DNA of 60,062 nt, the filler included, from Dugesia japonica (taxonomy: Eukaryota), in assembly GCA_001938525.1 (NCBI GenBank). It is 6 parts of 6 records of this genome, joined end to end, with 100 filler letters (N's around TTAATTAATTAA, not from the genome) between each part and the next. Parts side by side here need not be neighbours in the genome. Positions count along the whole stretch, not along the records: positions 1 to 9,339 come from MQRL01624584.1; positions 9,440 to 18,277 come from MQRL01537612.1; 4 more parts are not named here. One strand, 5' to 3'. The position numbers and the translations under genes are program-made. How positions within the stretch are numbered: position 1 is the first letter of the stretch; each line of letters opens with the position of its first letter. The notes beneath the pieces were generated by a model, which saw only the letters and a program-made list of their open reading frames with translations, made no database searches and was not told the origin of the DNA. This document shows, piece after piece, positions 1-49,788 of the stretch.

Positions 1-85
1 AAGTGATTCAGTTTATTTTGATATCTAATAAATATTTGTAGTAAATTGTTGTTGTATCTTAACCTAACAGTTACTATTGCTCAAT

Positions 86-172
86 TCATTCTGGTTATAA
101 GAGTTTAAATAGAAACATAATTTACAATACATGTTTATAACCAGAATGAAGAAGGCATAGCCGAAATATTGA
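86..172 (+). ncRNA. Inverted repeat plus degenerate minimal hammerhead-like core (Penelope pLTR-type)
   Basis: ttcattctggttataa / ttataaccagaatgaa inverted repeat, overlapping (a)TGAAGA-A-GGC-ATA-GCC-GAAA at 146-166. The first C of CUGANGA is replaced. Confidence 0.45.
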
Positions 173-1190
173 ACCATCTATGAAAATAGAATAACATAAT
201 ATATGTGAAATTAATTTTGGTGTTTTGGCAAATCAATTATCTTTAGAAAATGTACCTAACTTAGTGGCAGCAGTAAATACAGATTCAATTACAGATATGT
301 TATTATCAAATGTGTTCTACAAAGATGATATTGAAAAATTCATAAAGAGTTTATCTTTGCATTTGAAAATAAGTTTTAAATAACAAAATTTATTTTTCAA
401 AATATCTTTTTAGAATCTAATCATTAATAAAAAGAATTTATCGTCATTTTTATTGGTTGAAACTATTTCTTTGTATAATGATTTTCTCGACTAATGATAA
501 AACTGCAAATAATTTAAATCATATTAATACAACTTCAAATTGATTATATTATATTAATTCAATATCAGAACGTTTGAAATTATATTAATTCGATAATTTA
601 TGATTAACTCGAGNNNNNNNNNNNNNNNNNNNNNNNNNNNNNNACAGAAGTTAGAATTGAAGAAAGTGCAATGTCTTCTGTCTTTCTTTCTCTAAGAGTG
701 GAGGAACAAGAAAATGATAGGTCAAAGGCCGAAGAATCGCGTGATAAAATAAAGGATCAATGAAGAAGGTGTGTACTGGATTGACTGTGAAGAGGTTCAC
801 ACTGTGAAAGATGAACCGGTCGGAAATGCGGGAGATGGAAATATAAACAGATATGGAGATGCTTCAATTACAAGTGATGTTGGAGGAAAGAGAGATGCAA
901 CCACTCAGAGTGAGTTGACACCGAGCCTATGATTTGTGAGGCTCCTTTCTACTAGAAGTATCGGAGAGACTTCCATTGGATAGTATAGGAGTGTTACGGT
1001 TGAGAAAACTAAAATTTTAAATAAATATTAAAATTGTAAATAATTAGAAATTCAGATTAAATTAATTTAAATGAAATAAATCTATATATGTTAATTTTAG
1101 ATAAAAATGCTTGTATTAATGTAAGTATTTTTATTCCAAGGCTGCCAAATAGTAAGCAAAAAAATATAAAACAAAAAATACAAAATATAT

Positions 1191-1290
1191 TAAAAAGACT
1201 TGTCATTAGTATTAAGGATTTATTTAACAATACTATAATTTGTATTATTCAAACAAAATTGACTGTTTAAATAATCTGTATTTTCTAACT
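1191..1290 (-). repeat. 3' LTR of the Gypsy element
   Basis: Near-identical to 4958-5057 (acttgtcatta..ttgactgtttaaataatc). Preceded on minus by GGAGAGAGAA (PPT). Confidence 0.85.
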
Positions 1291-2462
1291 TCTCTCTCCA
1301 TTCAAATTGAAACTCGTTTTAACCATTCAACTTGTCTTCACTTTGGTTTATCTGGAAAATTCAGTAAGACCTGATGGGAACATAATAATCGTAAATGGAC
1401 ATTCATATCTGTATCCACTTTTATGAATATTATGAGGTTCCTTTTATACAAGAACATTTTCACTAATTGCAAATTGTCTGTGACCTCTTGTATTTGATTC
1501 GTACTTTCTCATTTCCTCTACAACTCATTTCAATTCTACTTTTGTGTCATTAACCACTTGTTCACGACAACCCATGTAACATCACTTTGTGCCTATGTAG
1601 AACTTTAAATGTAGATCTCTTTATAGCGCTTTGATATGTTGCATTAATTGAAAATTCAATCTTGGGAATGTATTTATCCCAANTAAATCTATTCTTATCA
1701 CTATTCATATCTCTGACTGTTCTAATTACTCGCTCTGCTAAACCGTTGGCTTGATGTTGTTAAGGTGATGTAAATTCTTGTGTAATTCCAAATCTTCCAC
1801 ACAAATCCTTCATTTTTCTACCTTCAAAAACTCTACCCCGATCAGATAAGATTGAATTTGATTTTTTCAAAACGGTAAATCCAATGGTTCCTTATTGCAT
1901 CTGATATTGCTGTNTCATCTTGTTTACTAAGAGGTATCAGTCGAACTAGTTTGCTAAATCTATCGATAATAACAAGCAAGTAATTTTGATTAGATTTATA
2001 CTCAGAAAAATAGGCCACATCTATTACAATTTGTTCTAGTGGTTTAAATTCTTCTCTAGGTAGCAATAGGTCTTTTGTTCGACCAGTGTAGATCTTTTTT
2101 GGCACATACTTTACATTTTTGAATTGTATGTTCAATTTTTCTACTCATATCACGCCAAAAGTATGTCTCTTGAATATATTCCACTAACTTCTTGCTTCCC
2201 AAATGGCATAGTTCTTCGTGCAAATATTTGACTAATTTTGGTGATTAATTATATGGTATAACGGTTAGTTTCTTCTCTTGATCATCTTTAATTACAAAAT
2301 TTCCAAATAATTTGAATTTATCTATACTTTTAAAATATTTGCTTTTTTTCACTTCAGTAGTTACATCATTATCAAAGCCTTGTAACCAGCATAATATTGA
2401 TCTTAGTATTCCACATTTCTTTTGTAACTCTTCCATACTTTCATTATAAAATACATTTTCAT

Positions 2463-3700
2463 TTAAACGGTTTTTAAATCGAACTTTAGATTTATTCCAT
2501 CATGGTGTTTAGTTAAACATTGACTACACAGCGTTTCATTTATTTTGGATAGGCCGTCAGCATTACTGTGATCCGTTCTTTTCCGATATTCTAAATCAAA
2601 ATTAAATCCAGAAAGATTAGCAAACGAAGTCTGAAACTGTGGACTAATTGGTTTATTCGTTTTCTTCATATAAGTCAAAGCTTTATGGTCAGTCCTTATT
2701 TTAGACTTTTTCCCAATTAATTAATGCTTAAAATGCATAACAAATTCATGAATAGCTAAAGGTTCTTTTCTGGTTACACAATAACCTTTTTCGTGAGAAT
2801 TTAAAACTCTCGAAGCAAAACCTATGACTTTTTCATCGCCTTTGTAATCGTATTGGCTTAGAATAGCTCCAGTAGCTCCAAGACTTGCATAAGTGTCTAG
2901 AATCATTTCTTTTGATGGATCAGAAAATGCCAATATTGGAACTGTGGATAATTCATACTTTAACTTTTGGAAGCTACTTTCAGCATTTGTGGACCATTCA
3001 ATCATTTTTTGTTGCCTGATATAAAGGCGTAATAATAATTGCATAATCTTTGATAAATCGACAATAATAATTAGTTAGTCCCACAAATGATCTTAACTGT
3101 GTAACACAACCTGGAATTGTTTCTATTTTATCATCATTAGTTTGAATTCCTTTTTGACTAATTGAGTGCACCAAAAAATTCAATTTATCAGTTCCAAATA
3201 CATATTTTCCTGGATTAACCTTTAACTCAAATGCTTTTTCTAATCTTTGATTATGTTCATCAACTTTTTTTCCATAAACTAAAATGTCATCCAAATAAAC
3301 AATTATACCTTTATACAGCATTCCATTAAAAATCAAATTTATTGAACTCTGAAAAGTTGCCGGTGCTGTACATAAACCGAAGGGCAACCGATTAAAACAA
3401 AATTGTCCAATCTTTGTACTAAAAGCTGTTTTCATTTGCGAATCTTCGTCTAACACANNTTGATAATAAGCTTGTCCTACGTCTATAGATGGAAAAATAG
3501 TTGATCCATTTTAGGTATCCAAAAGCGTGTTTATATCAGGTACCGAAAAAGAGAATTTTCAGTTACTTCATTCAATCGTCGAAAATCCGAACCCATTCGG
3601 ATAGTATCAAACAAATCTTCAATTAATATATCAACTTTATTTTTTAAATGCATTGGTTGTCTTCTTAGATTTTCAGAAGTTGGAGGTCTTTTTGTATTAA
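2463..3700 (-). pseudogene. Gypsy reverse transcriptase-RNase H, frameshifted
   Basis: KTAFSTKIGQFCFNRLPFGLCTAPATFQ, VYLDDILV, LRSFVGLTNYY, EKGYCVTRKE. Confidence 0.92.
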
Positions 3701-4957
3701 CATGATGCTTAATCAATATAGTGATTCCTAAATCAAATTTAAATACCATAAAAATCGATCCATATTTTTNNNNNNNNNNNNNNNNNNNNNNNNNNNNNNN
3801 NNNNNNNNNNNNNNNNNATGCCGTCTTAACACGATCACAATCCGTATATGTTGTATTTACTTCAGAAGAATCAATCAATTTTACTTATGCCAAGAATATT
3901 CCAAATAATTTCATCATATCGATTGCACCAATAAAACCAGGAAAAATACTTTTAACAACTAAAATTTCCTTCATCAAAGGTTTCTTTTTCCATAAAATTT
4001 GTATAAATATCTTACCAAGACATGATTCATGTTTTGAAGAAAACACACCCGACAATCTAAGTTCTGACTTTATCATACTAGGTGCACCAATTCGAATCCA
4101 ATTTTTTTCACTCATCACTGTTATTGATGGTCCAGAATCCCACAACATTTCAATATTACAGCCATTACACTTCATAATACTCCACGTGGAGGTGCTTTAC
4201 TCCTGCATTGATTGTAGAATTTCATTGCAATCATCTTCATTGATCGTTGTGGTCTATTGGCTTGATGAGAAAAATTCCCATTATTGCTCGAATGTGAAAA
4301 TTTTTTATCTCGATCCTTATATGCAGTTGATTTTTCAGATTGATTTCTATTTTCTGAAGATATAAATTTACTGAATTCCTTTAGTGCTCAAAATGTGTCT
4401 TCCCTTCTGTACGTTGATTATAATATCGAGGTTTACTAATCACTTGCGAATATGTTGGTTTCATAACATGAACTTCTCGATGCGGAACCAATTTTTCTAA
4501 ATTCGTTGCAAATTCTCTTCTTCTTTCGTCAGACATTGATGGGTCAATGGCAAAGGATTCACGTAGTNTCTCACTCTGTAATCCTTGCAGAATAAATGCT
4601 CTTGCAATTTCTTCTATTGTTAATTTCTTTTGAAATACGTCTGTAACCATTTTTTTACTCGAATCTCAAAATTTCTGTACTTATTTTTCGACCTTCTCAT
4701 TAGTAAAAGGATCGTTTGAACAGGTTTTCGCATCACCTCTTAGGAGCATATCTAACGCGAAAGCAAATGCCATTTGATTGAATGTCGCAAAATCTTTCGT
4801 TGTGTGCATCCAATCTTCGGCATCTTAACTGAGACCATCAAAGAAACTTGGTTTTGGGATAACATTTCTTGCGTTTCTTGAATCAAATTAGAAAAGTAAA
4901 AAATTAGAAAGTCAAAATTTGCTCTTGTTAACACATTAATTTCGACGGGCTTGCCAG

Positions 4958-5057
4958 TAAAAAAACTTGTCATTAATATTAAGGATTTATTTAATAATAC
5001 TATAATTTGTATTATTCAAACAAAATTGACTGTTTAAATAATCACTATTTTCTCACT
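4958..5057 (-). repeat. 5' LTR of the Gypsy element
   Basis: Direct repeat of 1191-1290, followed on minus by a TGG-starting PBS. Confidence 0.85.
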
Positions 5058-6414
5058 AATATAAAATAAGAAGTATAAAACGGAAAGCCTAAAGAGAAGT
5101 GTTATATTTAAAAGAAAAAATTTTGGTATCAGAATAAAGGGGATAAAAGGGAACTTAAATTGATTTTAAATCAACAGCGGAATTCTATCAGTTGAGTTTT
5201 CANCCTTCTGGTGCAAAGAAAAAAGCAATTATTGTTACCTAATTTGGATTTATTTATTATTCTTTGTATCCTGTGTGTTTATTGAATAAAATTTGATATA
5301 ATTTTAGTATTCTATATTATTTTTATATAATGAAACTTGGTTAATTAATCGAACACAAAATTTTGGAGTCAGAAACACCTAGCTTGCAAGAATTGAAATA
5401 CGAATTAATGGGGAAATCTATTTTTTTAAAAATATTTTAATACAATTGATCTGTTAATATTTATTTATGTATGAATTTATGGAACACTTGGAAAGAGAGG
5501 AGGAATCGAGGATCGTGAATAAGGATATCGGAGTGATTAAACTCCATCCAATACCTAAAATTCTAGAATTATGATGTAAATAGAGTTTTTTCACTCTAAT
5601 GTTTATGAAGCTCACTTAGCTATAGCAGTTTTTAAATTTGGTTTTTCTAAATTTATTTTGCTATTCTCATTAGTTTCTTTCTTAGCTTTTTTAGGTTTTG
5701 TGATTGCTGAGGCCATTCCTGGTGTAATACCTGCTGCACCGGATAACTCTGATATAGGGTAAAACACTTAGGTGATAATATAGATAGGTAGGAACAAAAC
5801 TGAAGAAGAGGATAGAATAAAGAAAAATAACGAAACCAGAAAATGGGAGGTCAAAGATTAGCTAAAGAAGAAATAAGTAAAGAAAAAACCAGAATTGGAA
5901 AATTAAAACATACGCTGTAATCAAGGAAATCTTCAAGCAAAAGGTAATAGCTTAAGAAATATAAGAAGGGAAACGACATAAATCATCAACAGACGCAGAA
6001 GACAAATAAGGATGGCAAATAATGATGAAAAAATTCATTAAGAAGAATAAAGAAATTAAATTAAACTAATAATTGAAATGATAAGAAATACATTAAACGA
6101 AGTATTTATAGAAAGAAAATATTTAAATTAAATTAAATTTCGGCGTAGAAACTGAAAATAGCAATCTAATTAATAAGTTAAGAAGAAAAGAAAAATAAAA
6201 TAATTTAATTATTAAATAAAATAAATCACAAAAATTAAAATGATTTATTTTGAAAGGAAATTAAATTTATACGAAAATATGAGAAAATGAAGGGTTCCTG
6301 CTAGGAAAGATTTATTGATTAGGAAAATTATAAACTAGAAAACGTTGAGGAATTCAAAAATTTTGGTTAAAAAATCACAGTTCAACCCCTAAAAAAGTTA
6401 CAGAGGTTTTAAGA

Positions 6415-6640
6415 TTAGCCAATCAGATTCCAGCAGTTTTGGAATTCCAAAACATTGACCAATAAGAAGAAATCAAATGACATAACTTGAGCAATCCAGC
6501 CAATGAGAACGGTAGAAAAATTTAATAACACATATTAACCAATAGAAAGAATGAGGGCGTACCAACAAACTGGTATAAATACCGTTGCAATTTTCAGCAG
6601 AAATCAATCAAAAAAATAATCGACTTAATAAAAGGTAATG
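6415..6640 (+). promoter_or_regulatory. Pol II promoter: 4 phased CCAAT boxes, TATA box and leader-exon splice donor
   Basis: CCAAT at 6419, 6459, 6500, 6539; TATAAATA at 6574-6581; AAAG|GTAATG donor at 6634/6635. Confidence 0.75.
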
Positions 6641-7966
6641 AATGGACGACAAGTTTTCTTTTTGCAACGGTTTCAATCCAGAAATCTATGAAATATAGAG
6701 TCCCCGGAATATAATTAAATCACATATTATACGGGGAATATAGAATATACCGTGTAGGTGTGTAATTCAATTGAAATAAAACACCCTTTACACTAATATG
6801 CAAATAGAACAGATAGATTTTAGTTGGTGCTTAATCAGTGATATATATCAGATATGAATGAATTAAATCCATTCTGGTTGTCATGGTGATTTCAATTGCG
6901 CTGTGCTTGCTCCGGATCGATTCGCAGTTCACGTTAGTATTGTTTAGATTATGTAAATTAAAATTTTAAACTGTAATTGATGAATGATAATATAATTTTC
7001 GGTAATTAATTCTTTTTGCTTATCAATAATGATTAGTAATATTTATAGCTGAATAATCGCAATTAGTTAGTAATATTGAGTAATATTTAAATGATTGATT
7101 AAAAAATTGTTAGTAATGAACCATTGTAGTAATGTTTAATTAATACTTCTTTATTTCAATACATAATGATTTTTAATCATAAAATAATGATTCATTCCAC
7201 TTTCAAGTAAACGATAATAAATATCCCTCAATTAGCAACCTTTGGTTTATTAAAAACGATACTAATTAATGATAATGATTTTATCCAATATTAATAATTA
7301 TAGTTAAATAATGATAATTTATTAATAGTTTTGCTTAAATAGGGTTAATTAAAATGATCTATATTCATGATTTCTAATTGTAATGTTGATGGAATAATCA
7401 AAATACAGCTCCCTTTTGAAGCGATCAGTAGCAGTAACCTTAAATTTTCAAAATACGATAATCATAACAATGTTAGTAGTAATAATAATTAATGGCGATA
7501 CATAACTAATGTGAACACGGTTAGTAATGAAGTTTATAATAAGAGTAACGTATGCGTATGACTTGATGTCGACATTGTTCCGCGATAATAAAAGATAAAA
7601 TCCGCATAAAAATGCACTACGAACTAAAGGGTTGATTTTTCCATCCGACTCAAGAAATTATAATAGATGGACGATTTGGGAAGGACGGTAGTATTAGTGG
7701 TCTGATATAATTGCACGTATTGGGGTCCCACTTGAGTTTGGGGTAGAAAAAGCACAGCTGGGAGAAAAACAGCCCTCGGGGGTCCCCTTCAAAAATTTAG
7801 CTAATGCCCCTTATTAGGTTTTCGGTATAGAGCGGTTGACTTCCATCCTAATTTGAAGTGCACACACATATACCTTTACTTTCGGTTTCATTAGTTTTCC
7901 CTTAAATTTGATTATCAAAGAAATCAACAATATTTTTAAAAACGACATTTATTTGGGTTTTCCAAA

Positions 7967-8370
7967 TTACATAAGGTTGAGAGCACCCGGGTCTAACCAC
8001 TGGGTAGGCTCTTCTGGTAAAAAATTAAATACCACCTTATCATCATTATTATCCCAGTGGATCCATGCCTCATTCCCCATTTGGCGGGACTGGTCAGAGA
8101 TGTAATGCTGCAAAAATTCTATTTTATGTTGTAACAACTGTTTCGTTTCNTCGGCTAATTCGCCCTGTTTCTGCATTATCAGATCAAGCTTTTTTATTAG
8201 ACGATTACGCTGGGACAGGTGTTTCAATAGAGCCCTCTCGGCTTGACGCTTAACATGTCGTTCTACCAGGAGCTTCTGGATCAGTCAATGGCAACGTCTT
8301 AAACTGGTCGGGAGTCGGATGCGTGGCACTAAACGAATGGTAATGATCAGAGTAAAATATAGCTCGACTA
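7967..8370 (-). pseudogene. Orphan accessory cassette 3 (helical/coiled-coil; one frameshift)
   Basis: Acceptor ttttattgtcAG at 8372-8371, ORF ending at 7967 (..WLDPGALNLM), AATAAA at 7953-7948; higher GC than flanks. Confidence 0.5.
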
Positions 8371-8464
8371 CTGACAATAAAAATTCAGATTTTTAATTAA
8401 ACTTATAAAACCAAATGAAACAAATCAATTTCAATAATGACGACTTTTATTTACAAAAGGAAAT

Positions 8465-8814
8465 TAATGGAGTTGACGAATTCATAGCCGCGAGGTTTGC
8501 GTGCTCTTATCAACCACGAGTGGCTCGAGCAGAATGGCCTTCCTCAAAGCCATAATATCAATCACCAGTTTATTTTCACGGTCCTGGAGGGAGTTGATTC
8601 TTCCAGAGTCTCTCCTGAGCATGAGAGGCCTCTGCTATCTTTTTAAAGGCTAAACACTTCTTCTTATAGCGACACACCTTACTTTCAGCGGTGGCCGTGT
8701 CAGCCTCCCATCGGCGCTTCGTGAGGCGATTCAAGCCCCATGTCATCTCTTGGTCGTCGCTTGTCTCACGTATCTTTTTAGTGGGTGCTGTTGCGCGATT
8801 TAATGATGAATGCA
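8465..8814 (-). pseudogene. Orphan accessory cassette 2
   Basis: Acceptor ttttgcAG at 8816-8815, ORF 8576-8815 continuing after a frameshift (RENKLVIDIMALRKAILLEPLVV), AATAAA at 8451-8446. Confidence 0.45.
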
Positions 8815-8983
8815 CTGCAAAAATAGGGAAATCAATTATTAATCATGGACCAAAAATTCAAAGAGAATCCAACAAGAAATTTAAAAATAGTAATATTCCT
8901 TATTATAAATGATGGGAGTCATTAGTAACGAACAGATACAAAATGAATACTTTATTAAATACCAATAAAAGAGAAACAAATAT

Positions 8984-9756
8984 CTATATAGGAGTTTCAC
9001 TAGAGGGATCAGAGTTCTCGGAAGTATTGTTCTCGACGGACTCACGAATATTCCATAAATTATTGTGTACAAAAGCGTTTAGGTTGTGCAATAGAGGAAG
9101 ATGATTGGTAGTGATGCCTAACACCGAAAGGCCTTCATACTTCCCGTTAGTGCTTAACTTGGTGGTTGTGACGACGTGATAAACGGCACGCTTACGATCT
9201 GGTCCATTCCACGTATAATATGAGTGACGCTCGTTTGCGTCCAACTCGCGTTCGTCGTTGGCTTCTTCAGTGGGCAAGTTTGCTGGGTCGACCAGAACAC
9301 GAGCATTCCTATCATGGTGATTTCTGTATCTTTTGAATANNNNNNNNNNNNNNNNNNNNNNNNNNNNNNNNNNNNNNNNNNNNTTAATTAATTAANNNNN
9401 NNNNNNNNNNNNNNNNNNNNNNNNNNNNNNNNNNNNNNNTGATGGTGGAGGAGATCACTTAGTTGTTTGTTCTCCGTGCGCAGCCACTCAACTTCCGCCT
9501 CCAACTCCCAGATCCTCATGCCCTGGACAGTGTCTCGTCGATTGAATTCGACATTCTGTCATCGGAGTTGAGACATTTCGAAGACTAGCATGCCAATCTT
9601 CTCTTGCAAGGCTTGGCATGTTCTTGACCTGTTCGTAGAGGTGGCTAATGAACCATCAAAACTGGCGGCTAGTTGGACTTCTTGCCCAAAGGTTCTGCTC
9701 GGACGGAGTTGCATTAAATTCTGGTTGGCGACGTTCTGTGGGGAATTCTCATCCAT
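8984..9756 (-). pseudogene. Orphan accessory cassette 1 (~250 aa, coiled-coil N-half), spanning a contig spacer
   Basis: Acceptor aatatttAG 2 nt before ATG 9756. ORF 9559-9756 reads through one TGA into QNVEFNRRDTVQGMRIWELEAEVEWLRTENKQL and resumes after the gap as FKRYRNHHDRNARVLVDPANLPTEE..; AATAAA at 8956-8951. Confidence 0.55.
9340..9439. other. Artificial contig spacer (44N-TTAATTAATTAA-44N)
   Basis: Six-frame stop linker; identical 100-bp structure occurs five times. Confidence 0.97.
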
Positions 9757-10259
9757 TTCTAAATATTCCAGATTAATTCATGCTTAATCTGTGGTTCATT
9801 ATGCGTTAATGAACGTTTAGTGACGGTGCCTTGCACGTTGCTGATTTTACTGATAATATTTATGATAGTAACCTGCACGAACTATATCGTTGTTTTTAGT
9901 AGTAAAACGACGTTAATAATTCTGACCACGTGGTAAATGTTAGTAGTTATAATTTGGGGCAAGGTGGACGAATTAGTTAAGGTTGTGGATCGTTTCGTAG
10001 GATATCTAGACGCTACACATTATAATCGCATAAATATTAGTAAGAGAAATAATACGCATAAGTGCCTAATAATACTAATGGAGCAAATCGATGATTTTAA
10101 TACTACTGCCATGGGTATGGTACATAAAAAAAATCTATTAACAAACTCTTAGCCTTCCTATTGCCAACGTCCCTATTGCTAGAATATTAATTACTCGTGA
10201 GTTTGATTAATACCCTAATCTTAAATAAATATGTTGTTACTAATACCGACTAATCGCAA

Positions 10260-11090
10260 GGATATTAATTATGATAATAATCATCAATCATAAGAATGAT
10301 AATATTAAAAGTAATAAAGTAATCCTAACCATGATAACAATCACTGCCCTAACCATATCAATAATAGTAACAAGAATACTACGGATCAAAATAATAATAA
10401 TAATAATGTCAATAATAATAATAATGATAATGATAATAATTAAAATAGTAATCATTAATAATAGTAAGTCGTAATAGTAATAATAATAATAATAACCATC
10501 ATAATAATATCAACCATACTAGNNNNNNNNNNNNNNNNNNNNNNNNNNNNNNNNNNNNNNNNNNNNNNNNNNTAATACTAATGGAGCAAATCGATGATTT
10601 TAATACTACTGCCATGGGTATGGTACATTAATGAGAAAACAAAAAACTATTAACAAACTCTTAGTATTCCTATGGCCGACGTTCCTATTGCTATAATTCA
10701 TAATATTAATACTCGTGAGTTTGATGAATACCCTAATCCTAAATAAATATGATGTTACTAATACCGACTAANNNNNNNNNNNNNNNNNNNNNNNNNNNNN
10801 NNNNNNNNNNNNNNNNNNNNNNNNNNNNNNNNNNTAAAGTAATCCTAACCATGATAATAATCACTGCCCTAACCATATCAACAATAATACTAAATGATAG
10901 TAACGAGATGGCTACGGATCAAAATAATAATAATAATAATAATGATAATGATCCTCACGATTTTAATGATATGGAATATGATGCTAAAAATCATAGTGAC
11001 AATGATAATAATGAAAATGATAATAATAACCATCATAATAATAATAATAATTAATAATGATAATAATAATAATGCTAATAATAATAAGAT
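10260..11090. repeat. (AAT)n-rich low-complexity tract, duplicated around gaps
   Basis: Degenerate AAT/GAT triplet runs; 10071-10430 is repeated at 10573-10940. Confidence 0.85.
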
Positions 11091-11237
11091 TTTCAGTTAA
11101 AAATTAATGAGGCCCATGGAAATAATACTTATTTAAATGAATGTTAGCAAATGCAGAACAACAATAAAATTTTTAAGAATAATAATATTNNNNNNNNNNN
11201 NNNNTTACATTACATAAAAAGAAACTGAGATTTAACT

Positions 11238-11358
11238 AATTACCTTTGTTTGATGACTACGCTGGATCGGGCTACACTGGTCGGCAAAATCCTTCGTTTA
11301 TTGTTCTTTTCCTTTTTATTTTTTAATTTTTTTGGGAAGAGGAAACTGAGTATTTATA
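11238..11358 (-). promoter_or_regulatory. Minus-strand TATA promoter with short leader exon and splice donor
   Basis: TATAAATA at 11358-11351; AAAG|GTAATT donor at 11244/11243. A duplicate TATA lies at 11765-11758. Confidence 0.55.
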
Positions 11359-12592
11359 GTGATGAGAGTTCGACTGAAAGGTGTGCCGATTGATGAGGTA
11401 CCGACGGCAGATAGTAATGAGAGATTTTTCGTAAATACGTCGATTGATTAGTNGAGGAATCGGTTTCTTTGAATTTCACCGAATGTTTTTATTTTCGTCG
11501 AGTAGTAGTGTGCTGAGCGAATTTCTGTAAACAATTAATTCGTGATCGAATTTCTGTGACGATTTATTCTCGATGGAATTTTCGGGAGAAAATTATGTTG
11601 GATNNNNNNNNNNNNNNNNNNNNNNNNNNNNNNNNNNNNNNNNNNNNNNNNNNGACTACGCTGGATCGGGCTACACTGGTCGTCAAAATCCTTCGTTTAT
11701 TGTTCTTTTCCTTTTTATTTTTTAATTTTTTAATTATTTTGGGAAGAGGAAACTGAGTATTTATAGTGATGAGAGATCGACTGATAGGTGTGCCGATTGA
11801 TGAGGTACCGACGGCAGATAGTAACGAGAGATTTTTCGTAAATACGTCGATTGATTAGTCGAGGAATCGGTTTCTTTGAATTTCCCCGAATGTTTTTATT
11901 TTCGTCGACTAGTAGTGTGCTGAGCGAATTTCTGTGAACAATTAATTCGTGATCGAATTTCTGTGACGATTTATTCTCGATGGAACTTTCGGGAGAAAAT
12001 TATGTTGGATCGAATTTCTATAATAAACAATTCTTGGTTGAATTCCTGTGTAATCTAACACTCCTTTGATGCGATACCGGTTTTCTGATATCGTTGGTGA
12101 TAATTGATTTCGATTGGAAATTTAAACTGCTGTTGAATATTTTTCGTAATTTTTTATTTAACAGGTAAACGATTTGTGGTTGTAATTATGAGTTAACAAA
12201 CGATTAAAATACGAATTTATAATACTGGATTGAACTNNNNNNNNNNNNNNNNNNNNNNNNNNNNNNNNNNNNNNNNNNNNNNNNNNNNNNNNNNNNNNNN
12301 NNNNNNNNNNNNNNNNNNNNNNNNNNNNGATGATTAAATAGATGGGAGTAAAATATTTTGGTTGATGGGTCCTTTTATATTAATTTTTTCGGCTTTGATC
12401 ACGTACCGATTGGTGGGTTATTGTGATTTAAACGAATCCTTTTTCGATATTTTGATGATAAATTTTGAATTTATGTCGTTGTTTTTTGATTAATCCTTCT
12501 CTATTTTTCGGAATATACTCGTTAATCTAGATTTTTTCCCAATCATCTTGATAAATTCTAGAGTTTTCATAAGGTATTAGTCGAGATTTCCT

Positions 12593-12883
12593 CTAAGGTA
12601 ATTTGANNNNNNNNNNNNNNNNNNNNNNNNNNNNNNNNNNNNNNNNNNNNNNNNNNNNNNNNNNNNNNNNNNNNNNNNNNNNNNNNNNNNTGGTTTCTGT
12701 CCCAACATTATTGTATACTTTAATAACTCGTATACACAATTTTTCCATTGAAATATTAATATCTCCATGATAAATAACTGGAATATCTTGTAAAGAATTA
12801 ATAAAATCTTGTTTAGTTAAAATTTCTTTTATATCTAAATATTTTTTCATTAAGATTATCAATTTTATGATACAATCTAGCAC
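12593..12883 (-). CDS. Polinton hypothetical protein (partial, runs into gap)
   Basis: ORF in the same-strand viral gene train. Confidence 0.4.
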   Translation of the reverse strand: MLDCIIKLIILMKKYLDIKEILTKQDFINSLQDIPVIYHGDINISMEKLCIRVIKVYNNVGTETXXXXXXXXXXXXXXXXXXXXXXXXXXXXXKLP

Positions 12884-37973: not shown

Positions 37974-38073
37974 NNNNNNNNNNNNNNNNNNNNNNNNNNN
38001 NNNNNNNNNNNNNNNNNTTAATTAATTAANNNNNNNNNNNNNNNNNNNNNNNNNNNNNNNNNNNNNNNNNNNN
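37974..38073. other. Artificial contig spacer
   Basis: 44N-TTAATTAATTAA-44N. Confidence 0.97.
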
Positions 38074-46975: not shown

Positions 46976-47509
46976 ATGTTTAAATCGCTGACGACGACAG
47001 TAGCCAAGGAATCGCTAAAGCCAGAAAGGTGTTCCTTCCAATCAAATATTCTGAACGATATGCCGAATTTGTGGGAATCAATTAGCGAGTATGGAACCGA
47101 CTATGGTCCATGGTGGATCACTCAGAATTGCCTACAAAAGAAGGATTAGAAACTGTTAACTCTAAGAGAGAGATTGAATCGGCAGGAGGAGACACTACGA
47201 CAGAAGGCCGCAACGTTGGAGGATTTGGATAAAAGAGTGGAACTACAGGAGCAGCACTACAATAATCAGTTAGCGGAAATCTTGAACAGAAATGAACAAC
47301 GGGAAAAAGAACTGATATCCTTGTTCATACGATCGACGGAAATGCACCAATATCAACAGCGAGCAATCCAAAGTTCGCGTGCTACTCAGCTGGAAATAGA
47401 TGAATTCAACAAGATGTCGGATCGGTTGAACATAGAAGTCGAAGAGATGTTAAGACAGACTCTAATACCGCTCTATGGAACTATTGAGAATCAGGAAACT
47501 TTATTGTGA
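46976..47509 (+). pseudogene. Orphan coiled-coil protein (177 codons, one in-frame TAG)
   Basis: ORFs 46943 and 47174 share a frame; acceptor aatatctAG lies 1 nt before ATG 46976; long heptad pattern. Confidence 0.6.
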
Positions 47510-49688: not shown

Positions 49689-49788
49689 NNNNNNNNNNNN
49701 NNNNNNNNNNNNNNNNNNNNNNNNNNNNNNNNTTAATTAATTAANNNNNNNNNNNNNNNNNNNNNNNNNNNNNNNNNNNNNNNNNNNN
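49689..49788. other. Artificial contig spacer
   Basis: 44N-TTAATTAATTAA-44N. Confidence 0.97.

Follow-up and report, generated by a model that had tools for sequence, protein, structure and literature searches.

Serial orphan coding cassettes in a decayed, multi-copy mobile element of the planarian Dugesia japonica

Extra open reading frames (ORFs) are common in long terminal repeat (LTR) retroelements, and spliced and antisense transcripts are called for (PMC7264820; this and every other paper cited below is represented by excerpts). For almost all of these ORFs, function and mode of expression are unassigned. How might a whole series of them be expressed? The question is raised by a window of 60,062 nucleotides (nt) of Dugesia japonica DNA (GCA_001938525.1), by which we mean the whole stretch analyzed: AT-rich eukaryotic DNA (N = 4.8%) in which six scaffolds of 8.8-11.6 kb each are chained by five identical artificial 100-nt linkers, and which consists for the most part of mobile elements in decay (Gypsy fragments, mariner-like remnants and a Polinton). 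On its minus strand, downstream of a TATA-like box at 11358, lie five GC-richer ORF remnants in series, here called cassettes 1a, 1b, 2, 3 and 4. An initial annotation had proposed that one promoter expresses several proteins from this array through alternative splicing and polyadenylation (poly(A)), and that the array is probably the antisense accessory region of a giant LTR retroelement. Our analysis supports the view that the cassettes are what is left of coding exons in a multi-copy family, and the family-level cassette architecture in a decayed mobile element is real; splicing to a shared exon is plausible from the sequence. The explanation that we favor, with about even confidence, is that the array is the decayed remainder of one copy of a multi-copy repeat, likely an accessory region in a large LTR retroelement of the Gypsy type, with the cassettes as alternative last exons. 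In intact copies, each cassette would be spliced to one shared upstream exon, which would likely supply the start codon in phase 1, and each cassette's RNA would end at its own poly(A) signal. Both scaffolds that carry the array would belong to one element, this element would be an LTR retroelement, and the products would be small coiled-coil regulators, like retroviral accessory proteins. The array comprises the following features, in 5' to 3' order of the minus strand.

11351..11358, minus strand: TATA-like box TATAAATA; second copy at 11765 in a duplicated block; no RNA read in three of three runs
11244..11330, minus strand: candidate leader exon; no ATG; AATAAA at 11320 and 11302; ends at the donor AAAG/GTAATT
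9759..11243, minus strand: candidate intron; 27% GC; AAT-rich unit of ~510 nt present twice (75-86%); three N gaps; no minus-strand AATAAA
9440..9758, minus strand: ORF 1a; ATG at 9756; in-frame stop at 9561-9559; cut by the linker ~25 codons before the family's end
9340..9439, no strand: first scaffold linker; 44 N, a 12-nt palindrome with stops in all frames, 44 N
8984..9339, minus strand: ORF 1b; 117 open codons, a different protein from 1a; start lost in the linker; followed by AATAAA at 8956-8951
8482..8816, minus strand: cassette 2; strong acceptor AG at 8816-8815; 78 open codons in phase 1; in-frame ATG at 8746; frameshift at ~8600-8590; last stop at 8484-8482; AATAAA at 8451-8446
7967..8372, minus strand: cassette 3; acceptor AG at 8372-8371; phase-1 frame of 133 codons with an internal stop at 8287-8285; first in-frame ATG at codon 64; AATAAA at 7953-7948
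7620..7902, minus strand: cassette 4; acceptor AG at 7902-7901; heavily broken; conserved patch at 7765-7854; no nearby AATAAA

The artificial linkers occupy 9340-9439, 18278-18377, 27847-27946, 37974-38073 and 49689-49788, and features that run across them need checking. This applies to what the initial annotation had drawn as one first cassette, which is not a single ORF: it contains the in-frame stop of 1a and straddles the first linker. Two intact relatives of 1a were recovered, namely P0002 (130 amino acids (aa), 80% identity across all 105 residues) and P0005 (156 aa, 42% identity over 65 residues). Both have a start that matches that of 1a and both end 23-25 residues past the linker point with similar tails; their natural ends rest on the agreement of the two proteins. 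Since this tail differs from the ORF below the linker, what had been drawn as one frame is two ORFs, 1a and 1b, and with that split the cassettes number five. The protein searches with 1a returned one match in one case and three in another; a 994-aa repetitive bacterial coiled coil among the candidates (P0003) was dropped as a compositional match.

The signals on which the original proposal was built are present on the minus strand. These include the TATA-like box at 11358, the leader end at 11244 with its GT at 11243, the acceptor AGs at 9759, 8815 and 8371, and the AATAAA motifs said to close cassettes at 8951, 8446 and 7948, which start at 8956, 8451 and 7953, that is, 27, 30 and 13 nt past the last stop of cassettes 1b, 2 and 3. 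The possible fourth cassette at 7620-7870 gains an acceptor ending at 7901, but it is heavily broken and meets an AATAAA only at 7323. The claim of at least three GC-richer cassettes holds for the GC contrast, though not for the first cassette as a unit: the cassettes have 42-49% GC, the spacers 21-24% and the candidate intron 27%, and GC rises by 15-25 points across all four acceptors. By shuffling, the probability of an AATAAA within 45 nt of the stop is 0.018, 0.046 and 0.104 in the three spacers; its presence after the stop in all three has a background expectation of ~0.8%, given that 20% of AT-rich 45-nt windows hold one. The candidate intron contains no minus-strand AATAAA in 1,357 called bases versus 4.6 expected (P ~0.01). 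The order of the motifs exceeds chance. The acceptor at 8815 is also strong, with 34 of 2,267 AGs scoring equally well.

The comparison with other copies was based largely on data set X3, whose kind is not on record and which behaves like DNA. Its contigs matched the two halves of the array in numbers of 1,698 (leader and 1a, at a likeness threshold of 85%) and 2,117 (1b-4, at 80%). Summed X3 depth, which is no copy number, reached 110,000-132,000 on 1a (9513-9804), 3,800-6,800 on the adjacent intron (9878-10096) and 100-800 on the leader, and ranged from 34 to 7,866 across 1b-4 with peaks on the coding patches, including one of 5,332 on cassette 4 at 7790-7854. For the copy-number check that accompanied the original proposal, this depth indicates that every cassette is multi-copy and 1a very high-copy. 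Nearly all of this depth (98,653 of 99,572) differs from the window copy at the stop codon of 1a. Boundaries are kept in diverged copies as well: RNA reads cease to match at 8816 (four in X19, seven in X20) and continue into unrelated pyrimidine-rich sequence, and 83 X3 contigs and four contigs of data set X9 diverge at 7979-7980 yet, judged by eye, end the ORF in a stop plus AATAAA. Hence the acceptor at 8815 and the stop with AATAAA near 7960 are conserved, and the expectation that ORFs and signals persist between copies holds where they are visible. The loose ends over 7400-9339 were counted among those listed, in 23 of 492 rows. In other copies, contigs cover 1b together with its spacer, the spacer together with cassette 2, or cassette 3 through its spacer to cassette 4, and because they do so the local cassette order is a family trait; among the contigs listed, none spans cassettes 2 to 3. 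A 243-nt skip at 8525-8769 was rejected as splicing, since its ends are not splice-like and it occurs in both X9 and X3, and was attributed to a deletion in some copy.

These comparisons bear on the idea that chance motifs surround non-coding GC-richer patches, or that the cassettes are internal exons of an ordinary host gene. The window has 202 minus-strand AATAAA occurrences and three of the four acceptors are unremarkable, which is what such a view would predict. The intact 1a relatives (80% and 42%), the multi-copy depth on every cassette and the ORF ends kept in relatives contradict it, and it is largely refuted, leaving it barely credible.

The window copy of the array is dead and fragmentary. 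Internal stops interrupt 1a and 3, cassette 2 is frameshifted and cassette 4 has several breaks; 1b alone is unbroken. Because two X3 contigs (depth 5-9) match 7548-7830 and 8177-8371 with no differences, the breaks in these parts are genuine rather than errors of assembly.

If the cassettes were alternative last exons spliced to one coding exon, their acceptors should share a reading phase. At each of the four acceptors, stops are fewest in phase 1, clearly so for 1a, 2 and 3; cassette 4 is ambiguous, with phase 0 open longer and holding an early ATG. Such sharing has a chance of 1 in 9 for three acceptors and 1 in 27 for four, and it therefore points to a common upstream coding exon, as the splicing model predicts. 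The leader at 11244 cannot supply this exon because it has no ATG; as a non-coding leader it would serve 1a and 2, where the first ATG is in frame, and not 3 in the window copy. The start-bearing exon may have been lost in the window copy, may be hidden in a gap or may lie elsewhere. A reading of the leader as a primer-binding site was considered and set aside. Over 11339-11566, one 235-nt X3 contig matches the leader region with five differences. Two further blocks resemble the promoter and leader.

11654..12010, minus strand: second promoter-leader block, 95% identical to 11255-11603, beyond a 50-N gap
6417..6640, plus strand: promoter-like block facing the array; four RRCCAATVR (CCAAT) boxes ~40 nt apart; TATAAATA at 6574; donor-like AG/GTAAT at 6633

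The duplicated block is either an assembly echo or a true tandem duplication. The facing block holds four of the nine RRCCAATVR boxes of the plus strand, has its donor-like site 51 nt past TATAAATA, and forms the sole other TATA-plus-donor pair in the window. Going by its motifs, it may be the element's other, putative promoter, and its orientation would fit an antisense arrangement, as a hint only. Upstream of its CCAAT boxes we observed a broken ORF (5580-6050, plus strand) with a hydrophobic stretch and a Lys/Arg-rich tail, which had no Pfam match.

Several observations weigh against a Gypsy-type accessory region with alternative last exons. Some concern the signals and their use. The acceptors at 9759, 8371 and 7901 are ordinary (441, 324 and 234 of 2,267 AGs score equally), AATAAA also occurs within the leader (11320, 11302), cassette 2 (8574) and cassette 3 (8198), and cassette 4 has none until 7323. 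A separate poly(A) motif was therefore seen after three of the four ORFs with a visible end, and no pile of RNA ends was listed. The two TATA-plus-donor pairs of the window, versus ~0.6 expected, are not significant, and a search of 11340-9440 for an ATG with a strong phase-1 donor found none. The RNA runs were sampled to 6-26% of each, with the leader and cassettes 2-4 compared separately. Over 9440-11603, three raw runs gave 8, 52 and 1 reads, with none at 95% likeness or better, no joint and none on the leader (X18, X19 and X22); over 7400-9339, two raw runs returned 52 reads apiece, with a likeness of 95-99% for 2 of them, no joint and no pile of ends. Reads at 9757-9813 and 8816 cross the acceptors unspliced, and matches at 7458-7493 and 10262-10310 were set aside as low-complexity. 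The junctions from leader to cassettes that the initial annotation had wished to see were thus absent from four distinct RNA runs. This null counts only weakly against the model: divergence of the expressed copies is such that even the coding start of 1a stayed a loose end, and spliced reads would be mostly invisible.

That all RNA reads seen at acceptors are unspliced is also what would be expected if the cassettes were separate small genes with their own promoters in the spacers, or parts of an unspliced RNA, with the AG motifs unused for a shared exon. In keeping with this, a start codon of their own is present in 1a and its relatives, the high-copy family conserves ~55 nt upstream of that codon, and maize Grande gene23 shows that plant antisense extra ORFs can carry an internal promoter (PMC7264820). 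However, the spacers are just 66-169 nt long and hold the previous cassette's poly(A) signal. In phase 1, neither cassette 3 nor cassette 4 has an in-frame ATG early on; relatives of cassette 2 cease to be homologous at its AG, and the acceptors have their phase in common. We consider separate genes quite unlikely.

The second difficulty is one of depth and linkage. X3 depth on 1a is far above that of 1b-4 and the leader, and 1a may be part of another or a broader family. Because the linker at 9340-9439 separates 1a from 1b, the leader and 1a lie on one scaffold and 1b-4 on another, and since the linker is artificial, the leader and cassettes 2-4 need not be neighbors. Of the proposal that one promoter expresses several proteins, coding-exon remnants of a multi-copy family with kept signals survive, but the leader and 1b-4 stand on different scaffolds with no joint between them. 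The main rival to the best explanation is accordingly that the assembler joined two unrelated elements, the leader and 1a coming from one very high-copy family and 1b-4 from another, so that the single unit would be an illusion of the linker. Consistent with this, the six scaffolds are all 8.8-11.6 kb long, coding sequence halts at linkers 2 and 3 without continuing, 1a is more than tenfold off any part of 1b-4 in depth, and a profile of 1a shows no kinship with 1b-4 (best E 0.3). On the other hand, cassettes of one rare kind flank the linker and agree in strand and acceptor phase; depth over the intron adjacent to 1a (3,800-6,800) falls in the same tier as the peaks of cassettes 2-4 (5,200-7,900); and complementary Polinton genes flank linker 2. 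There is thus a hint that the linker joins are not random, and a true neighborhood of 1a and 1b-4 is favored because cassette type, strand and phase agree and the Polinton genes complement each other across linker 2. A fusion of two families seems unlikely to us, and we retain the single array as the preferred reading.

The third difficulty is the identity of the element. For the proposed antisense accessory region of a giant LTR retroelement, neither gag-pol nor an LTR pair nor a primer site was seen in linkage with the array, both scaffolds ending or entering other elements first. The Gypsy element at 1191-5057 has its own 100-nt repeats and is separate from the array. None of six primers for GLT, GLT2 and BURRO1, published with probe sequences in PMC8532177, matches the window with fewer than five mismatches, these primers covering small parts of the elements. 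One could therefore picture the array spliced as proposed in a DNA virus-like or other non-LTR element, for instance as cargo of the neighboring Polinton, which from ~12,600 lies on the same scaffold with an integrase and a double-jelly-roll capsid. Yet the core genes of this Polinton/adintovirus (12,600-23,800) have 12-27% GC versus 42-49% in the cassettes, no such family was matched by the cassettes, and neither the scans of viral contigs nor the fold search (no match at E 0.001 or better) returned a relative. Cargo of a non-LTR element is, in our judgment, a very unlikely origin, and a Gypsy-type LTR retroelement remains the preferred host of the array. The locus scans likewise found no relative in metagenome contigs.

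The proteins themselves are orphans. The product of 1a is predicted to be a two-helix coiled coil; its model, built from a three-row alignment, has long helices at residues 23-64 and 77-104 (predicted local distance difference test (pLDDT) 71, predicted template modeling score (pTM) 0.54). The fold search with this model covered at least 500 matches, and the best Atlas feature score, 0.89, was in the chance range. At the Pfam cut-off there was no match for 1a, 1b, 2, 3, P0002 or P0005. For 1a only sub-threshold coiled-coil matches were obtained, such as bZIP with 18.1 bits versus a cut-off of 27.6 and no basic region. No homologue was found for 1b (none of 83 among longer proteins) or for cassette 3 (neither of two candidates). 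Rfam gave no match at E 1 or better over 5000-12700, and no tRNA gene was found. No paralogy was detected among the cassettes. P0002 and P0005 represent a coiled-coil protein family without a name. A further GC-richer orphan cassette was observed at 46976-47509 (plus strand), with an AG, an ATG one base on and 177 coiled-coil-like codons with one internal stop. It follows a low-complexity repeat tract and has no Pfam match, no kinship to the five cassettes and no AATAAA seen just after it.

The remaining elements of the window were recorded alongside the array. In the Polinton/adintovirus gene set at 12600-23800, the integrase has a phospholipase A2-like N-terminal match (E 6e-5, just under cut-off) and, besides the double-jelly-roll capsid, a minor capsid, a protease and a zinc-finger polymerase B were recognized by eye. 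The decayed Gypsy element at 1191-5057 (minus strand) has terminal repeats that are 94% identical and a reverse transcriptase match. A second decayed Gypsy-type element at 24494-27846 (plus strand) has a mononegavirus-like fusion glycoprotein match (PF24664, E 1.5e-11), an integrase remnant and further orphan ORFs, and is cut by linker 3. An exon at ~31520-31670 (plus strand) is of host type and presumably tubulin-tyrosine-ligase-like, judged by eye.

One giant planarian element has been reported to aid stem-cell survival (cited in PMC13465017), and for that reason further cargo proteins of such elements are of interest. If the preferred reading is true, serial and separately polyadenylated last exons would amount to a virus-grade expression scheme in a transposon. 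The exact junctions and 3' ends given here are offered for existing long-read and PIWI-knockdown data.

Viral units offer a model for such logic. In the adenovirus major late unit, one upstream exon is joined to several acceptors, and several poly(A) sites (L1-L5) are used. Complex retroviruses produce accessory transcripts such as tax/rex and HBZ of human T-cell leukemia virus 1 (HTLV-1) and tas/bet of foamy viruses, a short upstream exon giving the start codon of tax, and retroviruses have a single poly(A) site in the LTR. The likeness of the array to adenovirus and to complex retroviruses lies in the predicted logic only. Complex retroviruses differ in their one LTR poly(A) site, as opposed to a motif for each cassette; the bZIP matches of 1a fall below the cut-off, and 1a has no basic region.

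Among planarian elements, the giant Gypsy elements of the Burro type have accessory ORFs, tandem repeats and thousands of copies (PMC6431247). The array resembles Burro and GYPSM1 in its apparently very high copy number (1a alone), orphan accessory ORFs, tandem repeats and AT-rich, Gypsy-filled genome. Accessory ORFs with tandem repeats are present here (five ORF remnants and the ~510-nt unit twice), a trait that is not diagnostic alone. No giant gag-env-pol ORF or LTR pair is linked here, in contrast to those elements: versus their ORF of ~4,900 aa, the longest ORF of the window has 407 aa and the scaffolds end or pass into other elements, and versus paired LTRs with a total of >30 kb, the scaffolds have 9-12 kb and the only LTR-like pair nearby is that of 100 nt in the separate Gypsy element. 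The domains named for Burro and GYPSM1 (BIR, BCL2, MATH and ankyrin) gave no match here, and the excerpted account in PMC6431247 includes no spliced, serially polyadenylated accessory unit. Excerpts of PMC11410931, PMC10954484, PMC13465017 and PMC13238120 added nothing on element structure. Our literature search, with the primary Burro papers and Repbase outside its scope, found no account of such a unit, which may already be drawn there.

Plant Gypsy elements offer antisense additional ORFs in Grande (gene23), RIRE2 and Retand (TRP28), which likewise are orphans and lie next to tandem repeats within a long internal region; some contain Smc-like coiled coils, and they are proposed regulators (PMC7264820, PMC11963269). 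Most of them are single ORFs of some length that have an internal promoter and sit between pol and the 3' LTR, whereas the array has five short cassettes with their own poly(A) motifs. Finally, the GLT2 probe sequence (PMC8532177), over its first 400 letters, resembles the array by eye in a GC-richer ORF end, a short AT-rich spacer, a pyrimidine-AG and an open GC-richer phase-1 frame; the GLT and GLT2 primers have at least five mismatches to the window, and splicing is unmentioned in the excerpts of that paper. This likeness bears on a bolder and more doubtful proposal, which we put forward tentatively: an adenovirus-like accessory unit in an invertebrate retroelement family, in which one promoter and a short start-codon exon would be spliced to at least five phase-1 last exons that have their own poly(A) sites and encode orphan coiled-coil proteins. 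If so, related giant elements would share the design, as the GLT2 probe may illustrate.

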